IMG/VR virus record: IMGVR_UViG_2690316323_000007
Strand: one strand, 5' to 3'
Length of the DNA stretch: 10,280 nucleotides
Source of the DNA: a virus
Taxonomy: Duplodnaviria; Heunggongvirae; Uroviricota; Caudoviricetes
Under the pieces are notes generated by a model. The model searched no databases, was not told the origin of the DNA, and worked only from the letters and a program-made list of their open reading frames with translations. Below are positions 1 to 9,141 of the stretch, one piece after another. The first letter of the stretch is position 1, and every line of letters begins with the position of its first letter. A program made the translations under genes and the position numbers.

Positions 1-1251
1 GTGCTTACCGATACAAAATTAAAAAACCTCAAGCCGCAGGACAAACTGTACAAGGTCTCCGATCGTGACGGGCTGTATGTAGCTGTGCTTACGTCAGGCA
101 CGGTCTCGTTTCGCTATGACTACCGTATCAACGGTCGCCGCGAAACACTGGTAATCGGGCAGTATGGGCGTGACGGTATCAGCCTGGCAGAAGCGCGGGA
201 AGAACTGATTGCTGCAAAGAAGCTGCTTAAAGCAGGCCAGTCGCCGGCTGCGGCTAAACGTGACGGTATCAAAAAGATTCGTGGTGCCGAGACATTTGCG
301 GTACATACCGACAGTTATATGAAACACGTCATCCTGGCTGAAAGTACCCGCGCAATGAAACAGGCGGTGATCGACCGTGACATACTTCCGGTTCTTGGCA
401 ATAAAATGATGGCTGAAATTACCACATCGATGGTTCGTGATTTGTGTGACCGGATTGTCGAACGCGGTGGCCGGGCAACAGCAGTGCAGGCCAGGGAGAT
501 CATCAGTAGCGTATACCGTCACGCCAATGACCGTGGTCATGGTTTGTTTAATCCTGCGGCTGACATTAAACCTTCGTCTATCGCCATATTTAAACCACGA
601 GAGCGAACACTGACACCAGAAGAAATTGGCCTGTTCTTCCGCACGCTGGATGCCATTGGTGCTATGGGCACTATGAAAATGGCTTTAAAGCTGGTGCTTA
701 TCACTATGGTTCGTAAAGGCGAATTCACCAATGCAACGTGGGATGAAATAGATTTTAAAAAATGGACATGGACAATTCCTTCAGACCGCATGAAGGGAAG
801 CCGGACGCACGTTATTTACCTGCCTAAACAGGCACAGGATATATTGGTTGGGTTGCAGATGTGCGCTGGTGGAAGTGAATATCTGGTTCCTGGTCGTTAC
901 AATTTCCGGAAGCCATTATCTAATGCCGCGCTGAACTCTCTGATCGACAGAACGGTGAAAATAATAAATGAAGATGGTGAGCATATTCAGGACTTCACCG
1001 TACACGATATGCGCCGTACAGCAAGTACGTTGTTGCATGAGGCTGGTTATCCTTCAGACTGGATTGAAAAGGCTCTGGCACATGAGCAGAAAGGTGTGCG
1101 CGCCGTATATAACAAAGCGGAATACGCCAGACAGCGCGCCTACATGTTGCAGCAGTGGGCCGATATGATTGATTCCTGGATTGACGGGGAGCATACGGAT
1201 CTGATTCCGTTCTCCCCGTCGAAGTTTGAGAAATGGATGGCGGGGGAATAA
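1..1251 (+). CDS. Tyrosine recombinase / phage integrase, P4-like family (416 aa, GTG start at window position 1; upstream context not visible)
   Basis: N-terminal arm-type DNA-binding region (MLTDTKLKNLKP...DGLYVAV...FRYDYRINGRRETLVIG) and C-terminal catalytic region with H-x-x-R (HDMRRTASTLL) and a candidate catalytic Tyr (VRAVYNKAEY). Stop TAA at 1249-1251. Because the ORF starts at base 1, the true start could lie further upstream. Confidence 0.9.
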   Translation: MLTDTKLKNLKPQDKLYKVSDRDGLYVAVLTSGTVSFRYDYRINGRRETLVIGQYGRDGISLAEAREELIAAKKLLKAGQSPAAAKRDGIKKIRGAETFAVHTDSYMKHVILAESTRAMKQAVIDRDILPVLGNKMMAEITTSMVRDLCDRIVERGGRATAVQAREIISSVYRHANDRGHGLFNPAADIKPSSIAIFKPRERTLTPEEIGLFFRTLDAIGAMGTMKMALKLVLITMVRKGEFTNATWDEIDFKKWTWTIPSDRMKGSRTHVIYLPKQAQDILVGLQMCAGGSEYLVPGRYNFRKPLSNAALNSLIDRTVKIINEDGEHIQDFTVHDMRRTASTLLHEAGYPSDWIEKALAHEQKGVRAVYNKAEYARQRAYMLQQWADMIDSWIDGEHTDLIPFSPSKFEKWMAGE

Positions 1252-1258
1252 TTTTGCC

Positions 1259-1276
1259 CGGCACATCCCTGTGCCG
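1259..1276. terminator. Short hairpin between convergent genes (CGGCACA-tccc-TGTGCCG); possible weak bidirectional terminator
   Basis: Perfect 7-bp inverted repeat with a 4-nt loop in the 31-bp gap between the integrase stop (1251) and the Bro-N gene stop (1283). No clear U-tract on either side, so terminator function is uncertain. Confidence 0.3.
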
Positions 1277-1282
1277 CCGCCG

Positions 1283-1975
1283 TCAGAAGAACTCTGCTTT
1301 GTCGTTGATGTACTCCGCGTGCGTCTGGATATCACGCAGGCATTTGCTCACACCAACGATGTAGCAGAACATGGTGGTCAGCTCCGCCGCCGCGCCCGAT
1401 ACGTCGTGCCCGTCTTCCTGTAACTGGTTCAGCAGATTCATCAGCAGTGAGTTCTCCGTCAGGCCGAGAACACCAGACGGAGAATGAATCAGGCTACGGT
1501 AGCCGGGCTTCAGCGGGGCGCTGTAGGTTTTGTTCTCTATCTTCATTGCCTGCATCACTGCTGATGCTGTGGCGTTGGCTACCTGGTCGGCAACCATCTT
1601 TATGCGTTCTTCCTGCGGGAGCGAGTTTTTAATGTAACTTCCGGTGCGGCGGATCTGAGGAAGAACCTCACCTGTAACCCATTCAAGAAATCTGAATGCT
1701 CTCGTTCCCTCAGTCATTGCCTCTTTGCAACGCAGAATAAGGATGTAGAGACCTGATTCTGAAACGATGGATAGTTCTTGTATTCCACCAGGGGTCTGTA
1801 TTGAATACAGCCCCTTTTTGTTCCAGCCTTTTTTATCAAGTTTTCTCGCTTGTGTAACATCAATATTCAAAGCATTGCACACATCTTTGGTGACAAACCA
1901 AGGTTCTCCGTCAATCATGAACATACGGATCTGGCAGGATGACTCAAAGGAAAAGATGGAAGGTTTGGTATTCAT
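1283..1975 (-). CDS. Bro-N domain protein (antirepressor-like) with a C-terminal domain that is paralogous to the 85-aa protein at 3359..3616
   Basis: Six-frame ORF 1283..2020 trimmed to the internal ATG (1975..1973 on minus), which has an RBS (AAGGTGA) about 6 nt upstream. The N-terminal half matches the Bro-N pattern (FSFESSCQIRMFMIDGEPWFVTKDVCNALNI...GLYILILRCKEAMTEGTRAFRFLEWVTGEVLPQIRRTG). The C-terminal ~70 aa align with the small protein at 3359..3616. Confidence 0.85.
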   Translation of the reverse strand: MNTKPSIFSFESSCQIRMFMIDGEPWFVTKDVCNALNIDVTQARKLDKKGWNKKGLYSIQTPGGIQELSIVSESGLYILILRCKEAMTEGTRAFRFLEWVTGEVLPQIRRTGSYIKNSLPQEERIKMVADQVANATASAVMQAMKIENKTYSAPLKPGYRSLIHSPSGVLGLTENSLLMNLLNQLQEDGHDVSGAAAELTTMFCYIVGVSKCLRDIQTHAEYINDKAEFF

Positions 1976-2216: not shown

Positions 2217-2335
2217 TGGCACAAGAGGAGTGCGATGTAAATTTACCGCAAAGGTAATAATAAATGCATAACTCACGTTATTTCAACCCTATGTGGTTTG
2301 ATTGATCCCATTTCAGAAAATACCTGCCTATTTTT

Positions 2336-3335: not shown

Positions 3336-3360
3336 GGCCGCTCTTGCGGCCTTTAAATTT
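3336..3360 (+). terminator. Candidate rho-independent terminator after the two-gene operon (GGCCGC-tctt-GCGGCC followed by TTTAAATTT)
   Basis: Perfect 6-bp GC stem (3336-3341 / 3346-3351) with a 4-nt loop and a T-rich tail, sitting between the convergent stop codons at 3334 and 3359. Confidence 0.45.
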
Positions 3361-3616
3361 ACCGGGTTTGTTTTCGTAATTGTTCGGCACAATAGTCGAG
3401 ATGTGTTTGCAGATCCCGCATAGACATCTGTGAGCTGGTGACGTAGTTAATCAGTGCAGTCAGTTCGGCAAGTGGGCCATCGACATTAAATCCATCCTTA
3501 TCGAGATCCCGGAGTAATTTCATCAAGTGCGATCCCTCCACCAGTGACCTGACGCCTCCCGGCGTGTGAATCCTTTCGGTAAATCCGTCTTCCAGTGGAT
3601 AGTGATACTGCTGCAT
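3359..3616 (-). CDS. Small protein (85 aa), stand-alone paralog of the Bro-N protein C-terminal domain; predicted SOS-regulated
   Basis: ORF 3359..3634 trimmed to the ATG at 3616 (MQQYHYP...), which has an RBS GGAGAAG about 7 nt upstream; the ATG at 3634 lies inside that RBS. Shares about 40% identity by eye with residues ~160-231 of the 1283..1975 protein (IH[ST]P.GV..L.E.S.LM.LL..L..DG..V.G..AELT...Y......RD[IL]QTH). A LexA box sits 20 bp upstream. Confidence 0.7.
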   Translation of the reverse strand: MQQYHYPLEDGFTERIHTPGGVRSLVEGSHLMKLLRDLDKDGFNVDGPLAELTALINYVTSSQMSMRDLQTHLDYCAEQLRKQTR

Positions 3617-3635
3617 CTTATCTTCTCCATGCAAT

Positions 3636-3655
3636 AACTGTATATTTATACAGTA
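3636..3655. promoter_or_regulatory. LexA (SOS) box: AACTGTATATTTATACAGTA
   Basis: Matches the E. coli LexA consensus TACTGTATATATATACAGTA at 18 of 20 positions, with both CTGT and ACAG half-sites intact and 8-bp spacing. Lies immediately upstream of the minus-strand small gene (start 3616) and within the divergent region shared with the tail fiber gene. Confidence 0.75.
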
Positions 3656-3691: not shown

Positions 3692-3758
3692 ATTACCTGA
3701 AAGGTAATATCTGTTCGTATTCACACCCTTTCTATCCATATGTGGTTTTTCAGGTAAT
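3692..3758. promoter_or_regulatory. Cluster of GGTAAT half-sites upstream of the tail fiber gene (palindrome ATTACC-tgaaa-GGTAAT plus a further AGGTAATA copy)
   Basis: Palindrome at 3692-3708; AGGTAATA repeated at 3702-3709 and 3752-3759; TACCTGAAA (3694-3702) is the reverse complement of TTTCAGGTA (3748-3756). No good sigma70 -35/-10 pair is apparent for the tail fiber gene. Confidence 0.35.
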
Positions 3759-3811
3759 AGAATAACCAGATATGCGGCGCAACGGGTGCTGCGACTATCT
3801 GGAGATTTAAC

Positions 3812-6787
3812 ATGACGGTCTCAACCGAAGTTGACCACAACGAATACACAGGTAACGGCGTTACGACATCATTTCCGTATACCTTTAGGGTTTTCAAGGA
3901 ATCTGATCTGGCAGTACAGGTGGTTGACCTTGACGAAAATATCGCTGTGCTGGCTCTTGATACTGATTACACTGTCACTGGGGCTGGTGGATATAATGGC
4001 GGTAATGTAATTCTGTCGAAGGCGTTAGCTAACGGTTATCAGATTTCTATATCACGAGAGCTACCGGTTACGCAGGAAACTGATCTGCGAAATCAGGGAA
4101 AGTTTTTCGCTGAGGTGCATGAAGACGCGTTAGATAAGCTGACGATGCTGATACAGCAAGTCCGCAGTTGGTTTAGCCTGGCGCTGCGCAAACCATCATT
4201 TGTGGCAAACTATTACGATGCTTTGAATAATTACATCCGCAATTTGCGCGATCCTTCCAAGCCTCAAGATGCAGCTACAAAGAATTATGTTGATAATATT
4301 GTTAATGTGAATATTAACAGGACATTACGGGTTCCAGATAATTTTATTGAACCACTTCCTCCAGTTCATTTACTGGAAGAAACTGTCATTGGTATCGTCA
4401 ATGGTAAACCTATAGGTGTACCTGTGCCTTCTGGCAGTGCCGCAGATGTTCTTCTGCAATTATCTAGCGCAGGAGAAGGAAAAGGAGATGCATTAATTGG
4501 TGTAAGGCAGCCATTTGCCGGGGCTGTAACTATAACTCAGCATGAAAACAATGCTCTTTTCTTAAATGTAAAACAATTCGGAGCAATTGGGGATGGGAAA
4601 TATCATCCATTATCTGAGAGGTTTTCTTCAATTTCTGAAGCAAAATCCTTATATCCTTTTGTTGACTCATTATCTCAGTCAATAGACTGGGCCGCGTGGC
4701 AAGCTGCCATTAACACAGGAAAGGTTATTTATGGTACTGATAATGCGTATGTAATAACGGATACGTTAACACCTGTTTCTGGTGGTGGGATAATTGGTCT
4801 TGGTGTGGGCAAATGGGTCTCTGGATATACTGCAACATTTGCTCCTGATATTACCACAGGGACCACATTCCTGATGTACGGTGTAGGAAATAAAAAATAT
4901 ACTGTAGATTGTGTTTCTAATATGGATGTTAGTGGTGGTGTGGTTTCTAATCCATCTTCCGAAGACCCGTATACAACAACGGCACCTGCGTCATCATATG
5001 ATTTATTGGATTTTACTAACGGTGATGCTAATGGGGCTACAAGAGCCACGCTTAAACCATTCTCTGCCGCAATATTGATGCCAGAGACAGGATGTGTTCG
5101 CCTTGAGAACTTTCGTATTGTTCCATATTTCAATGGGCTGGATGGTTATAAAGACATTGCAAATACCGGTCTTGGCGATGAGTGGGATGTAGGTATTTGG
5201 TCACGTGCGTCTTTTGGCAATGAATACCGCAATTTGCAGGTGGTTGGATACTGGCGCAAGACGGCACTTTTAAAAACGAACATTCCTGTATCTGGCACGC
5301 TGGCCGCTCAGGGCGAGGATGAAAACTATTATCACTGTAGATTCCAGGGATTCAAGGGTGTTTCGATCCGCGCCCATGATGTATTCCGAATTACAGCGGT
5401 AACGTCCAGCACTATCGAAATCCCATGGTCATCAAGCCACACCTTCGAAACGTCCGGGGTTTTAAGATCGGGAGGCAGGAATTTCACTTATTCAGGATTA
5501 TCCGTATCCGGTGATAAGTTAGTATTTACTGGAGTGTCTAACGCTTCTGAGGCAACAGTAGGTTCTACTATACGGCGAAATGACATAGATAACTTTGGTA
5601 TGGCGGGAACGCAATTTTTCGATTGCTACATTACCAGCCTGTATCACCACACACATCTGCTTGCCACATCGCAATACCTGTCTCAGCCATTCAGCCGGCC
5701 ATCAGAGTGTATGGAGGTTTCAGGGGAACCAGTTCGCGGTGTACAGGTACATGCAGGAACCATTCAGGGATGGGATGATGTTCTTATTCATCTGCATGAC
5801 TGTGGAAATATGAACTTTTACAGTACATATTTCGAAAGCCAGCCAGCATATGTAACTATAAATGGTGGTAATGCTATTGGTTATGGAGCACGTATGATAG
5901 CTTCCAGGCAATCAACAAGCTCATTACCATATGCAGCAGGGAATACTCGAGTGCTTAGAATGGTCGGGTGCTCTGAAGGCAATGGCGTTGACTGGGGTCC
6001 TGTATTTAACAACTATACAGGAGGAAGATATAATTCTGGAGACGGTGTATTTAACCCCCGCGATGCATTTGTAGACCATAAATCTCTTCCTGAGCAGTCA
6101 GGAGGTGAGTCAAGACTCGTATCACAAAAAGGAAATGCCAGAGTAGTATGTGGTGTTGGTAAAACTGTACTGCTTGGACCAACTTCAGGAGATTGTAATT
6201 TACAGAGTAATACTGGAAGTTTAAATATTAGAAGTGGGATAAGAGTAAGAATCGGTCACGCTGATGGAACAGACTGGTGGTTGGCAGATGCTAATAAAAT
6301 AGCTCCTGTTGATGATAATGTTAAAGCTATTGGACAGCCATCAAACAGATGCTCTGTTATCTATGCAGGAACCGGGTCAATCAATACGTCAGATGAAACT
6401 CTTAAAACAAGATATGATATTCTTAATGCAGAGCGTGATGCCGCTATTGAAATAAAGTCAGTCATCTATAAATTTAAATTTAATGACTCAATTAATCACA
6501 AAGGAATTGAGTCGTCCAGGTATCATTTTGGCGTTGGCGCTCAAACCGTAGGGGATATTCTTAGAAAGCATGGTTTAAACCCTGAGCAATATGCTTTTTG
6601 GTGTTACGATGAATGGCCTGACGTATGGGATGAAGAGGTGATAACTGAAGAGAGCACAGATCCTGATACAGGTGAGAAAATTTATTCTCAATATAAAACA
6701 GGAGATATGATTCTTGTAAAAAAAGCAGGAGGACGCTACGGAATTCGTTATGACGAATTAGCCATGTTTATATTAATGTCAATGTAA
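3812..6787 (+). CDS. Tail fiber / tailspike protein (991 aa) with T7 gp17-like N-terminal adaptor, central pectate-lyase-like beta-helix (putative depolymerase) and C-terminal intramolecular chaperone (peptidase S74-like) domain
   Basis: ATG 3812 with GGAG 7 nt upstream. N-terminus (YTGNGVTTSFPYTFRVFKESDLAVQVVD...DYTVTG) resembles podovirus tail fiber N-terminal domains. Central region has the beta-helix start motif (NVKQFGAIGDGK...DWAAWQAAINTGK). C-terminal ~130 aa (SDETLKTRYDILNAERDAAIEIKSVIYKF...YHFGVGAQTVGDILRKHGL) resembles the self-cleaving chaperone of endosialidase-type tailspikes. Confidence 0.85.
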   Translation: MTVSTEVDHNEYTGNGVTTSFPYTFRVFKESDLAVQVVDLDENIAVLALDTDYTVTGAGGYNGGNVILSKALANGYQISISRELPVTQETDLRNQGKFFAEVHEDALDKLTMLIQQVRSWFSLALRKPSFVANYYDALNNYIRNLRDPSKPQDAATKNYVDNIVNVNINRTLRVPDNFIEPLPPVHLLEETVIGIVNGKPIGVPVPSGSAADVLLQLSSAGEGKGDALIGVRQPFAGAVTITQHENNALFLNVKQFGAIGDGKYHPLSERFSSISEAKSLYPFVDSLSQSIDWAAWQAAINTGKVIYGTDNAYVITDTLTPVSGGGIIGLGVGKWVSGYTATFAPDITTGTTFLMYGVGNKKYTVDCVSNMDVSGGVVSNPSSEDPYTTTAPASSYDLLDFTNGDANGATRATLKPFSAAILMPETGCVRLENFRIVPYFNGLDGYKDIANTGLGDEWDVGIWSRASFGNEYRNLQVVGYWRKTALLKTNIPVSGTLAAQGEDENYYHCRFQGFKGVSIRAHDVFRITAVTSSTIEIPWSSSHTFETSGVLRSGGRNFTYSGLSVSGDKLVFTGVSNASEATVGSTIRRNDIDNFGMAGTQFFDCYITSLYHHTHLLATSQYLSQPFSRPSECMEVSGEPVRGVQVHAGTIQGWDDVLIHLHDCGNMNFYSTYFESQPAYVTINGGNAIGYGARMIASRQSTSSLPYAAGNTRVLRMVGCSEGNGVDWGPVFNNYTGGRYNSGDGVFNPRDAFVDHKSLPEQSGGESRLVSQKGNARVVCGVGKTVLLGPTSGDCNLQSNTGSLNIRSGIRVRIGHADGTDWWLADANKIAPVDDNVKAIGQPSNRCSVIYAGTGSINTSDETLKTRYDILNAERDAAIEIKSVIYKFKFNDSINHKGIESSRYHFGVGAQTVGDILRKHGLNPEQYAFWCYDEWPDVWDEEVITEESTDPDTGEKIYSQYKTGDMILVKKAGGRYGIRYDELAMFILMSM

Positions 6788-6797
6788 TAATAAATGC

Positions 6798-6837
6798 AAT
6801 AACCCCGAATAAAACAGCGGGGTTATTGTTATTATAA
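6798..6837 (+). terminator. Rho-independent terminator downstream of the tail fiber gene
   Basis: 10-bp stem AATAACCCCG (6798-6807) / CGGGGTTATT (6818-6827) with a 10-nt loop, followed by the T-rich stretch GTTATTATAAT. Confidence 0.6.
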
Positions 6838-7080
6838 TAATGATCTTAACTTCTTAAATGATATTTATATGCACTTGGATTATTAAATCTATATTATGCC
6901 TGTTATTTATGTGTTCTGTTATATGTTTTGCAGGCACTGTTGGCAGCATTAAAGGAAATTGTATTTATGGCGAAATAGCTGGTATCGTGTTTTTATTGTG
7001 CGTAAAAATAACAGACTGCATATATTATTGTATAAAGTTTTGGAAATGAAAACACTCAAACTTACCGCTGTGGATATGTT

Positions 7081-7109
7081 TTGACCATCGCGAATTGGAT
7101 TGGTAATAT
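7081..7109 (+). promoter_or_regulatory. Strong sigma70-like promoter upstream of the lysis cassette (TTGACC-17 nt-TGgTAATAT, extended -10)
   Basis: -35 TTGACC at 7081-7086, 17-nt spacer, -10 TAATAT at 7104-7109 preceded by TG at 7101-7102. Located about 85 bp upstream of the first lysis gene. Confidence 0.55.
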
Positions 7110-7120
7110 TGGGTAACAAA

Positions 7121-7136
7121 AAACCATAAATGGTTT
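7121..7136. promoter_or_regulatory. Perfect 16-bp palindrome AAACCATAAATGGTTT just downstream of the predicted transcription start; candidate operator
   Basis: Arms AAACCAT (7121-7127) and ATGGTTT (7130-7136), separated by AA. Sits between the promoter -10 and the RBS AGGAGG (7161-7166). Confidence 0.4.
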
Positions 7137-7193
7137 ATCATGCGTAATGCTTTACTGTTCAGGAGGTAGTTATGCATATAAACGGTGGAAAAC

Positions 7194-7598
7194 ATGTCAG
7201 CTCAACTAACCAGTGAAACTTTAAATCAGTGGCTTAGCATGAGTTCTTTGGCGGCAGTGATAGCAGGAGTTCCTCCTGAGGTTGCTTTGGGGTCTTTGGC
7301 TGGGGCGGTGATTTTTGTTACCTCTGCGGTAGAGTATCCCATTCGTCGTCGCGTGCTCTTGTCGATGCTTAGCTTTCTCTGCGGACTTCTATTCTACAAA
7401 CCAGCAGCATCAATTCTTATCGGCATAGCCAGCCTGATCCCTACAATCACACAGGATTCTTTCGAGAAAGGGATTGTTTTCTCTGCCGGTGCATTTGTGT
7501 CAGCAATCGTCGCTGTGCGAATTGGGATCTGGCTCTATCACCGTTCCGATAATCCACGCGAGTTAATTCCGGGGAGAAAAGACGATGGTAACTCATGA
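7194..7598 (+). CDS. Holin-like membrane protein (134 aa from ATG 7194; 137 aa if GTG 7185 is used), about 4 predicted transmembrane segments
   Basis: Hydrophobic stretches LAAVIAGVPPEVALGSLAGAVIFV, VLLSMLSFLCGLLFY, ASILIGIASLIPTI and IVFSAGAFVSAIVAVRIGIWLY, with a charged C-terminus. First gene of an overlapping operon with the endolysin. Two in-frame candidate starts (GTG 7185, ATG 7194). Confidence 0.65.
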   Translation: MSAQLTSETLNQWLSMSSLAAVIAGVPPEVALGSLAGAVIFVTSAVEYPIRRRVLLSMLSFLCGLLFYKPAASILIGIASLIPTITQDSFEKGIVFSAGAFVSAIVAVRIGIWLYHRSDNPRELIPGRKDDGNS

Positions 7599-7893
7599 GC
7601 TTTTTTTGCTTATCACCAATGCGGTTATTTGCGCCGGTATAGCAGTTCGAGTTGCCACATTTCGGAGAAACGGTTCTCAACACAGGCGATGGGGTGGGTG
7701 GCTTGCTTATTTCCTGATTGTTGCTGCGGCCAGCATTCCAGTTCGTGTCGCTTATGCAATCTGGTTACGCACGCCAATGGCTGTGGATTTATCTGAGGTC
7801 ATTATCAACGCTGTCATGCTTGCCGCGGTTATTAAAACACGCGGTAACGTTGTTCAGATTTTCAAAATATCGAGGTCTAAACATGGAGATTAA
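7585..7893 (+). CDS. Second small membrane protein of the lysis cassette (102 aa; holin or antiholin-like)
   Basis: ATG 7585 with GGGGAGA 6 nt upstream; overlaps the upstream gene's stop by 14 nt in a different frame. About 3 hydrophobic segments ([53 protein letters not shown]). Its stop (7891-7893) overlaps the endolysin start. Confidence 0.65.
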
Positions 7894-8512
7894 ACAATTC
7901 CAGCGAGCTGCTGGTATTAGCGAGGCGCTGGCCGCACGCTGGTTCTCGCATATAACTTCTGCGATGAAAGAGTTTGGTATCAGCAAACCAGAAGATCTGG
8001 CAATGTTTATTGCTCAGGTCGGGCATGAGTCTGTGGGCTTCACCCGGTTGCAGGAGAATTTCAACTACAGCGTCAGCGGACTGGCTAACTTCGTTCGGGC
8101 TGGGCGTCTCACTCAGGGGCAGGCTAATGCACTGGGGCGACGTGCTGGTGAGCCACCATTGCCACTCGAGCGCCAGCGAGCGATCGCCAATCTGGTGTAC
8201 AGCAAACGCATGGGGAACAATGCCCCTGGTGACGGCTGGAACTACCGTGGGCGCGGACTTATCCAGATTACCGGTTTGAATAACTATCGTGACTGTGGAA
8301 ACGGTCTTAAGGTTGACCTGCTGGAGAGTCCTGAACTGCTGGCGCAGGACGAATACGCGGCTCGTAGCGCGGCGTGGTTCTTCTCCAGCAAAGGCTGCAT
8401 GAAGTATACCGGAGATATTGCACGTGTAACTCTGCTTATCAATGGTGGCCGGAACGGCATTGATGACCGGCGCGCGCGATACATAACTGCCAGTAAGGTG
8501 CTGGCGGTATGA
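7883..8512 (+). CDS. Endolysin, glycoside hydrolase family 19 (chitinase-like lysozyme), 209 aa
   Basis: ORF 7718..8512 trimmed to ATG 7883 (GAGG 7 nt upstream). GH19-type motifs: [45 protein letters not shown]. No N-terminal transmembrane segment. Confidence 0.85.
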
Positions 8513-8991
8513 TCTGGGCATTCGCAAAAGCATACTGGAAACAGTTGGTTATCATGGCGATGCTTGCTGTTCTGGTCATATCAGGAGTTGTAGCCTGGAA
8601 TGCACACGGCAGTCGTCAGTACGATGCCGGGTATGCGCAGGCGAAGGAAGACCGCAAAGCTGAAGATGAGATAGTTCGTCAGCACTACGAACAGGAGAAA
8701 TCGATCAATGAACGTGAAGCGCAGCAGAGGATCGACCAGGCGCGCAATGATGCTCTTGATGCTGCCGCTCGCGCTGGCCGGTTGCAGCAACAACTCTTTG
8801 CCATCCGTGAGCAGCTCAGGCAGTATAACGCCATTGTCGGCGCTGGGACGTCAGCCGCAGACACCGGAGTTTTGCTTGCCGACGTGCTCAGCAAATCTCT
8901 CGAGAGAAACAGACAACTGGCAGAGTATGCTGACCGGGCAGCCGAAGCCGGAAGAGTCTGCGAAAAACAATACGACACCCTGACCAGATAG
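8509..8991 (+). CDS. Rz-like inner-membrane spanin (i-spanin), 160 aa
   Basis: Start ATG overlaps the endolysin stop (ATGA at 8509-8512). N-terminal transmembrane segment ([18 protein letters not shown]), a long charged/coiled-coil-like region ([38 protein letters not shown]), and a C-terminal Cys. Confidence 0.8.
8708..8983 (+). CDS. Rz1-like outer-membrane lipoprotein spanin (o-spanin), 91 aa precursor, fully embedded in the +1 frame of Rz
   Basis: Lipoprotein signal peptide with positive n-region ([12 protein letters not shown]), hydrophobic core and lipobox LAGC (Cys at residue 26); Pro-rich mature part. RBS-like AGGAG 10 nt upstream. An alternative start at ATG 8747 would give too short a signal peptide. 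Confidence 0.7.
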   Translation: MNVKRSRGSTRRAMMLLMLPLALAGCSNNSLPSVSSSGSITPLSALGRQPQTPEFCLPTCSANLSRETDNWQSMLTGQPKPEESAKNNTTP

Positions 8992-9072
8992 CATGGCATT
9001 TTTCATGGTACTGATTTCCGGTGACGGTATATAAAACGGTACTAGAAAAATGAAGTTTTGGAAAAATGTTAT

Positions 9073-9109
9073 CACTCAATTAGTTATGATTGTCGTAAAT
9101 AATTGAGTG
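9073..9109. repeat. 10-bp inverted repeat CACTCAATTA-N17-TAATTGAGTG in the junction region between the lysis cassette and the flanking genes
   Basis: Perfect arms at 9073-9082 and 9100-9109. Could be a protein-binding site or part of the island boundary; no function can be assigned from sequence alone. Confidence 0.35.
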
Positions 9110-9141
9110 GGAATGATTTGAACCCTGTACTATGAATGAAC

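Follow-up and report, generated by a model that had tools for sequence, protein, structure and literature searches.

A recurrent dyad and a conserved leader RNA hairpin before the lysis cassette of a Uetakevirus prophage remnant

The closest described counterparts of the locus analyzed here are the lysis regions of the Uetakeviruses epsilon15 (AY150271/NC_004775) and phiV10 (NC_007804), where a five-gene lysis cassette lies at the prophage end next to attR behind a leader with a hairpin (annotated 'RNaseIII', 24755-24817, in epsilon15) and a dyad, and where a family of 'repressor' sites precedes the late blocks. In their relative ZX5, overexpression of the prophage repressor Rep cut holin and endolysin mRNA by >99.9% (PMC9782041), an effect on the lysis mRNA that could be indirect. 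The part of PMC9638917 that summarizes the SPC32H work describes Rep as a tetramer with two DNA-binding pairs. We analyzed a 10,280-nt stretch of viral DNA (IMG/VR record IMGVR_UViG_2690316323_000007, the whole of which is called the window below), a deletion remnant of a Uetakevirus prophage at guaA/yfgI in E. coli, with attention to the leader of its lysis cassette, which shares the features named above and whose genes are 82-94% identical in DNA to those of phiv142-3, phiV10, and epsilon15-like phages. An earlier reading of the letters alone (the original prediction) held that this cassette is driven by its own near-consensus sigma-70 promoter with a palindromic operator, and regarded the arrangement as unusual. 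An autonomous, repressor-linked lysis unit proved to be the standard layout of the genus. The interest of the locus lies instead in a recurrent dyad phased with the Rep operator and in a leader hairpin that sequesters a Shine-Dalgarno (SD) sequence.

The 14-bp dyad has the genus consensus AACCATATATGGTT and takes the form AAACCATAAATGGTTT at 7121-7136 of the window. It had been described as a perfect 16-bp palindrome; its two 7-bp arms, AAACCAT and ATGGTTT, are indeed perfect, but the AA at the center is not palindromic, leaving an element of the form 7+2+7. Chance levels were obtained from first-order Markov resamplings, matched in dinucleotide frequency, of the 406-nt spacer (31.5% GC) between the tailspike and lysis genes, and an inverted repeat with 7-bp arms and a gap of 0-4 appeared in 27% of them. 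The palindrome is therefore unremarkable alone, and its weight comes from conservation. Lysis leaders were collected from 77 loci, which gave 47 distinct 180-nt upstream sequences, and leader statistics were computed over 49 unique leaders; these fall into class 1 (phiV10, epsilon15, Tyrion, and many IMG/VR contigs) and class 2, to which the window belongs. The dyad is kept in all 49; everything upstream of it is mosaic, and conservation sets in 2-4 nt before the CC of AACCATATATGGTT. Left-half positions A3, C6, and A7 (alignment A1) are conserved though they lie outside the RNA hairpin described below, and the dyad symmetry itself is conserved among the relatives, as in a repressor operator.

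The dyad also recurs within each genome. Matches to AACCATNNATGGTT with at most two mismatches numbered six in the window (0.64 expected) and eight in phiV10 (1.77 expected), counts that no shuffle reached. Placement of the intergenic copies was followed in phiV10, epsilon15, and one E. coli prophage, where + strand copies precede the portal block, the tail-fiber gene, the lysis cassette, the p42/gp40 replication block, and the p45/gene 43 nin-like block, each of these units following a terminator or reverse-strand genes. The palindrome can thus not be taken as the lysis module's own operator, since it stands before several other transcription units as well. A possible copy in the PL region of phiV10 has three mismatches, is not found in epsilon15, and was treated as spurious. 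Comparison by eye, with no tool run, gave no match of the dyad to the consensus sequences of IHF, DnaA, or other host factors. The most likely role of the dyad is that of a site where a protein binds, in coupling with the prophage repressor.

The coupling is suggested by the position of the dyad relative to the operator TTACC-N5-GGTAA. In phiV10 this operator has eight sites, seven of them in intergenic DNA (6.5% of the genome); the sites cluster at PL and PR and coincide with 'repressor' features of the epsilon15 GenBank record. The gap between operator and dyad is 30-32 nt in all 19 unique lysis leaders with an operator, which are of class 1, and exactly 31 nt in 14 of them. This corresponds to ~43.5 bp from center to center, or about four helical turns, across intervening sequence that is divergent. 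So constant a phasing speaks for a role of the dyad in DNA, exercised jointly with the protein that binds the operator. In two other modules of the window the gap is 28 nt (tailspike) and 29 nt (2243). In many leaders without a full operator, the window's included, a GGTAAY half-site precedes the dyad by 7 nt. We infer that the tetrameric Rep would use the dyad as a second site beside the operator.

The right half of the dyad is also where a conserved RNA hairpin begins, a feature absent from the original prediction. The minimum free energy (MFE) of the + strand is -20.1 kcal/mol for the window's leader (z -2.0), -32.1 kcal/mol for that of phiV10 (z -4.9), and -36.2 kcal/mol for that of epsilon15 (z -5.4), as against -8.6 kcal/mol (z 0.1) for the reverse strand of the window's leader. 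Over the 49 leaders the mean MFE is -24.6 versus -11.9 for the reverse complements, with z below -2 in 39; the strand asymmetry is due to many G-U pairs. Because of indels, RNAalifold on a MAFFT alignment recovered only part of the stem, and pairs were therefore counted in alignment A1 on a manually specified 24-pair stem. The stem was paired in 86.9% of cells versus 36-54% when the partner columns were slid, and its covariation score was 0.241 versus at most 0.119, with 8 pairs altered on both sides; none of 500 shuffles reached the observed values. Long stem, strand asymmetry, and covariation together are those of a structured leader. Class-1 stems are 22-24 bp long, and that of the window is broken by two bulges. 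A search of Rfam 15 gave no family match for the hairpin, only two sub-threshold chance hits, both outside it.

The 3' arm holds the SD and AUG of a short upstream open reading frame (ORF) that is out of frame with the first lysis gene. Its AUG (7172) is nearly invariant, and its frame and peptide vary between the leader classes (12-14 codons), so that the act of translating it probably matters rather than the peptide; this translation could provide coupling or open the hairpin. In transcripts that include the 5' arm, either by read-through or by a start at 7116, the predicted unpaired probability is 0.13-0.17 for this SD and 0.00-0.02 for this AUG, whereas in transcripts started inside the 5' arm the values are ~0.5 and 0.45-0.66.

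Candidate internal promoters were examined next to the dyad. Within the 5' arm, a -10-like hexamer follows the dyad at a distance of 7 nt and reads TATGAT or TATAAT in class 1 and CATAAT, CATGAT, or CGTAAT in class 2. With it, TTAACC-17-TATGAT, whose weak -35 overlaps the left half of the dyad, is the only promoter-like site consistently placed in class-1 leaders. The final T of the hexamer is at least 90% conserved though unpaired in 22 of 48 leaders, which hints at a constraint beyond RNA pairing. Predicted starts from this dyad-overlapping site and from GTAACA-17-TATCAT fall inside the 5' arm, at ~7155 and ~7148 of the window, and the candidate start in epsilon15 is at ~24781. Of the predicted promoters, the conserved candidate has its -35 and spacer in common with the dyad, GTAACA-17-TATCAT contains the dyad in its spacer, and for the site at 7081-7109 the dyad would cover +6 to +21. 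Two other arrangements were considered and rejected: a promoter between operator and dyad (2+6+17+6 = 31 nt), where most of the hexamers in the -10 position do not have the essential A, and the dyad as a core promoter element at a fixed distance from the -10 in every module, with which the distances are inconsistent.

We propose, with confidence just short of even, that the region is a conserved regulatory leader in which the dyad, with Rep, gates a weak overlapping promoter and the hairpin gates translation. The dyad would be the second half of a bipartite operator and would work together with Rep, and the promoter so gated would be TTAACC-17-TATGAT in the relatives and GTAACA-17-TATCAT or AAAACC-17-CGTAAT in the window's class. 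Transcripts begun upstream of the hairpin, by read-through or at the 7081-7109 site, would be folded and poorly translated unless processed by RNase III; those begun inside the 5' arm would be open. With Rep and the other phage regulators deleted from the remnant, silence of its cassette would rest on weak promoters and the hairpin. The leader so conceived recalls the fold-back inhibition of IS10 transposase, in which read-through RNA pairs an upstream segment with the ribosome-binding site, while the promoter of the element itself initiates within the structure. A wider proposal, which we hold to be rather unlikely, is that the late and lysis units of Uetakeviruses are each guarded by a bipartite operator plus an IS10-like fold-back leader. 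TTACC-N5-GGTAA and AACCATATATGGTT, ~43.5 bp apart, would then be matched to the two DNA-binding pairs of the tetrameric Rep, which would so clamp each late promoter directly. The unit's own promoter would lie inside the 5' arm of a 22-24-bp hairpin and only its transcripts would expose the ribosome-binding site, while read-through RNA would be translationally silent or would need a cut by RNase III. If true, guarding by two devices would explain why intact lysis cassettes persist in repressor-less remnants such as the window.

Several observations weigh against the proposed leader mechanism. The window's own leader has no full TTACC-N5-GGTAA, its best site being that at 7062-7076, with 2 mismatches and 47 nt away, besides the half-sites. 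The half-site of the dyad is AACCA and that of the operator TTACC, and the ACC...GGT spacing differs by 1 bp; for these reasons Rep binding to the dyad is a guess. At the lysis site, the dyad variants CCACATGTGG and CCGTTTACGG (L090/L093/L095 and L138) are altered symmetrically in both half-sites. A switch in specificity by protein co-evolution was considered and dropped, as the tail-fiber dyad of the same contigs kept the consensus and gave no support either way; with the variants unmirrored there, they are no evidence of co-evolution, and they may reflect palindrome-templated mutation. As for the promoter, the critical A is missing from the window's CGTAAT, the leader has three or four overlapping promoter-like sites, and such matches are common in this AT-rich DNA (26 found, 17.4 expected). 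In the other modules, moreover, the spacing between the dyad and a -10-like hexamer varies, with 7-10 nt for tail fiber and portal, 0-2 nt for p45, and 61 nt for the copy at 2287 of the window. In the literature searched, which did not extend to the primary accounts of the epsilon15 genome and of SPC32H Rep, we found no mapped Uetakevirus transcription start. Finally, the hairpin mostly hides the start of the upstream ORF, and the SD and AUG of the main gene are less affected.

Recurrence before many modules might also be taken as a hint that the dyad is an activator site. P1 late promoters combine a -10 with an inverted repeat near -22 and are activated by Lpa, and T4 middle promoters carry a MotA box at -30. 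Similarly, a phage-encoded activator could bind the dyad in place of a -35 at delayed and late promoters, with repressor operators superimposed, although we think this unlikely. Every module stands behind a terminator or reverse-strand genes and therefore needs its own initiation, and late genes need some timing device. After the dyad there is a -10-like hexamer at 7 nt, or a better match at 8-10 nt, each with a poor -35 match (TATGAT in the lysis leader; TAATAG at 7 nt and TAGAAT at 10 nt before the tail fiber; TAATAA at 7 nt and AATAAT at 8 nt before the portal block). However, the dyad also precedes the early p42/gp40 replication block, in another geometry, its spacing to the -10 is not fixed, and with the conserved -10 its center falls near -27, between -35 and -10, a position typical of a repressor. 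A candidate activator, phiV10p55/epsilon15 gp49 (phrog_536; the last gene before terminase), was rejected, because its 65%-identical homologue is found in ZF40, whose intergenic DNA has neither the dyad nor the TTACC operator. No homologue of Lpa was identified, and the variable distance and the lack of linkage between dyad and phrog_536 family do not fit a P1-type late promoter.

The phrog_536 family co-occurs with another palindrome, GTGACATGTCAC, which is not in the window. This 12-bp perfect palindrome has three copies each in epsilon15 and in the unrelated myovirus ZF40 (positions recorded: L009 2142, 19517, 39612; L006 2262, 19493; L007 1969, 19200; L008 811; L170 5125, 7622, 14944). In epsilon15, phiV10, and the E. 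coli prophage it is next to rho-independent terminators that end rightward units, and in both epsilon15 and ZF40 one copy directly follows the phrog_536 gene. It may be the site of the phrog_536 regulator.

According to the original prediction, 7081-7109 is a working sigma-70 promoter with a start near 7116, and the dyad (+6 to +21) is the operator that silences a constitutive operon; we consider this improbable. The sequence of the site is as described (TTGACC at 7081-7086, a 17-nt spacer, TAATAT at 7104-7109, TG at 7101-7102), and Pfam matches and ORFs confirmed a five-gene lysis cassette directly downstream. The site scored 9/12 in the promoter scan with an extended -10 (-35 5/6; -10 4/6, with A2 and T6), conforms to sigma-70 promoters in its hexamers, in a spacing within 16-18 nt, and in the A2 and T6 of its -10, and is the best promoter match among all leaders scored. 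A promoter of this quality appeared on either strand in 54% of the spacer resamplings and on the + strand with TG in only 3%; like the palindrome, it is not convincing unless relatives are compared. With a start at 7116 the transcript would include the dyad and the entire hairpin, in keeping with selection on the RNA fold. The -10 shares letters with a GGTAA repressor half-site, and at the corresponding position the other class-2 leaders carry weaker look-alikes (TCGACA-16-GACAAT, TACGAT, or GACGAT). Nevertheless, among 5,426 complete E. coli genomes, 70 of which carry the window's leader class, the -35 is present in 11 and absent from 59, and it is absent from all class-1 phages, whose leaders have nothing consistent where the promoter sits. 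Homology with most relatives begins at ~7097-7113, which leaves the -35 hexamer outside the shared block, and the two hexamers are not jointly conserved in relatives with the same downstream genes. The dyad, moreover, is not specific to the lysis unit. In a remnant without a regulator gene, a strong unrepressed promoter before an intact holin-endolysin operon should kill the cell if translation is not blocked by the hairpin; RNA started at 7116 would fold into it and is predicted to have the SD and AUG of the upstream ORF buried.

The 'strong promoter' is confined to one tailspike-linked sub-lineage and probably represents a lineage-specific addition or a chance match rather than the cassette's conserved promoter. 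It possibly works in its own sub-lineage, and its transcripts may then carry the inhibitory hairpin, which could be why the repressor-less remnant tolerates it. Overall, the observation from which the original prediction started was confirmed in part, and its interpretation is supported in part: the cassette is a separate unit with its own conserved control region and dyad, but the repressor of an independently repressed unit is not encoded in the remnant, since the window has no regulator gene and it is the full relatives that encode Rep.

The idea that the dyad acts in RNA only, with its right half as the hairpin base and its left ACCA pairing with UGGU of the GGUGG SD in a translational switch or RNase III site of a long late transcript, is the least probable of those weighed. 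In its favor, minimum-energy folds of phiV10, epsilon15, and many other leaders pair CCA/ACCA of the dyad with UGG/UGGU immediately beyond the 3' end of the hairpin; the stem, at 22-24 bp in class 1, has sufficient length for RNase III and is so annotated in epsilon15; and left-half C-to-T changes preserve G-U pairing. Against it, the dyad recurs in modules with unrelated downstream sequence, an RNA role leaves the 30-32 nt to a DNA operator across divergent spacers unexplained, the variants CCTTAT, ACATAT, and CCATATACGG break the pairing, and an A/U-rich mini-hairpin of 5-6 bp would be very weak.

The identity of the element was established by megablast of 6780-9100, which matched phiV10, epsilon15, SPN1S, TL-2011b, phiv142-3, and other Uetakeviruses; SPC32H is a member too. 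The integrase gene is complete (window 1-1251), and at most 8 nt separate it from the sequence that flanks the Bro-N gene on its 3' side (window 1-1290), with Bro-N region sequence from 1260 on. In intact relatives ~29 kb with early, repressor, replication, terminase, and head genes separates integrase and Bro-N region, and the joint found in its place identifies the window as a deletion remnant. It keeps the last ~8 kb, with the Bro-N gene, the tailspike gene, and the lysis cassette; its gene content includes no repressor, cro, replication, phrog_536 regulator, or head gene. The att core ATTGAGTGGGAATGATT at 9102-9118 and the flanking yfgI and yfgH place it at the guaA site, which ZX5 also uses. 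No complete E. coli genome covers at least 80% of the window. Gene order in the cassette, at the prophage end next to att, is that of Uetakevirus lysis cassettes (Table 1). The terminator-like hairpin that follows the tailspike gene in the window has its counterpart, in the records of epsilon15 and phiV10, in terminators or reverse-strand genes annotated at the same place, and in the relatives reverse-strand moron genes also stand between tailspike gene and lysis cassette. The cassette is an autonomous unit behind a terminator and probably under phage control, as is normal for the genus.

Table 1. Positions of the features of the window discussed in the text.
Feature	Position	Strand	Remarks
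Third module with perfect operator and dyad copy	2243..2298	+	operator 2243-2257, 29-nt gap, dyad copy CCCTATGTGGTT at 2287-2298
Perfect operator TTACCTGAAAGGTAA before tailspike gene	3693..3707		homologous epsilon15 site annotated 'repressor'
Second dyad copy CCATATGTGGTT	3736..3747	+	upstream of tailspike gene, 28 nt after operator
Tailspike/tail-fiber gene, unit upstream of cassette	3812..6787	+	991-aa ORF; annotated 'tail fiber domain protein' in relatives (E. coli)
Terminator-like hairpin after tailspike gene	6796..6830	+	12-bp stem, then U/A-rich tail; -18.1 kcal/mol, z -5.1
Degenerate operator-like site TTACCGCTGTGGATA	7062..7076		2 mismatches to TTACC-N5-GGTAA
Promoter-like site TTGACC-17-TAATAT with TG	7081..7109	+	site of the original prediction; predicted start ~7116; lineage-specific
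Two GGTAA half-sites, direct repeat	7102-7106, 7112-7116	+	second 7 nt before dyad core CC (7124)
Alternative promoter-like site GTAACA-17-TATCAT	7113..7141	+	dyad in spacer; predicted start ~7148; in all class-2 leaders
Dyad, arms AAACCAT and ATGGTTT around AA	7121..7136		left boundary of conserved lysis leader
Conserved leader RNA hairpin	7130..7186	+	predicted to bury SD and AUG of upstream ORF; 'RNaseIII' in epsilon15 record
CGTAAT, counterpart of TATGAT/TATAAT 7 nt after dyad in relatives	7143..7148	+	-10-like; weakened by G at A-11
Out-of-frame upstream ORF, 14 codons	7172..7216	+	SD AGGAGG at 7161-7166; overlaps start of first lysis gene
First lysis gene, gp23-like membrane protein	7194..7598	+	Pfam Phage_holin_8; SD GGTGG at 7184-7188
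Holin	7585..7893	+	Pfam Phage_holin_3_7
GH19 endolysin	7883..8512	+	Pfam Glyco_hydro_19
Rz-like i-spanin	8509..8991	+	ORF
Embedded Rz1 lipoprotein ORF	8708..8983	+	inside Rz; lipobox present

Some further features of the modules upstream were recorded. In the 2243-2382 module, which precedes ORF 2383-2838, operator and dyad copy are followed by TTGCCA-18-TAGAAT (2336-2365, 10/12) and, at once, by an operator-like site (2368-2382); the dyad there is ~85 nt upstream of the predicted start. The tailspike leader has a stable hairpin of its own (3766-3802; -20.9 kcal/mol, z -3.3), the 3' arm of which runs into the SD and the 5' arm of which is a reverse-oriented near-copy of the dyad, AACCAGATATGC (3764-3775); epsilon15 retains a hairpin in that position, the inner stem of which differs. 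At 3638-3653, between the tailspike gene and a small reverse-strand gene (3359-3634; phrog_450) with weak similarity to antirepressors, is a perfect LexA box, CTGTATATTTATACAG; box and gene fit the LexA-controlled antirepressor of SPC32H-type phages. In the AT-rich spacer between the tailspike terminator and the lysis leader, a 63-codon ORF (6858-7049) without an obvious SD would encode a very hydrophobic, Cys-rich peptide; at the equivalent place epsilon15 has small membrane-protein genes for O-antigen conversion, and the ORF might be a moron or of no significance.

Leaky lysis genes are lethal, and the way in which temperate phages silence them, both in lysogens and in decaying remnants, is of practical concern for prophage stability, for engineered lysis circuits, and for reporter or therapeutic derivatives of phiV10, SPN1S, and epsilon15. 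If the proposed mechanism is true, the genus would use a distributed scheme, in which each block has a repressor-gated promoter and a leader that rejects foreign transcripts, and not the lambdoid scheme of one late promoter plus antitermination. The dyad and its fixed phasing with the operator would then also predict the way in which DNA is contacted by the tetrameric Rep of SPC32H-type phages, an unusual repressor. Should the model fail, the locus would be a phage intergenic region of the ordinary kind, in which a promoter match arose by chance.

Compared with epsilon15 and phiV10, the window has the second leader class, with no full operator 31 nt upstream and with a GGTAAC half-site 7 nt from the dyad, a weaker and bulged hairpin, and a lineage-specific near-consensus promoter upstream; the epsilon15 record annotates neither the dyad nor the operator that we found at 24704. 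The N-terminal DNA-binding domains of SPC32H Rep reportedly pair in trans. A tetramer with two DNA-binding pairs, as described in the summarizing part of PMC9638917, would fit an operator and a dyad four turns away. The window resembles the Rep/Ant system of SPC32H also in its perfect LexA box beside a small reverse-strand gene, and differs from it in having no rep gene and in that the dyad, AACCATATATGGTT, is no more than a candidate site for Rep. The C1 operators of P1 are scattered over the genome and asymmetric, and some P1 promoters are under dual control. As in P1, repressor operators stand before many operons, late ones included, and a -10-like hexamer, combined with a poor -35, closely follows the dyad; unlike in P1, the dyad also precedes early genes, its spacing to the -10 is variable, and the operator is symmetric. 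The likeness to IS10 is in the arrangement of the hairpin, with a 5' arm that covers the conserved -10-like hexamer and the predicted start, a 3' arm that contains the SD and AUG, and an SD predicted to be closed when the RNA reads through and open when it starts internally. It differs from IS10 in that the occluded AUG belongs to a short out-of-frame upstream ORF and not to a lysis gene, the internal start is a predicted one, and cleavage by RNase III could instead activate the read-through RNA.

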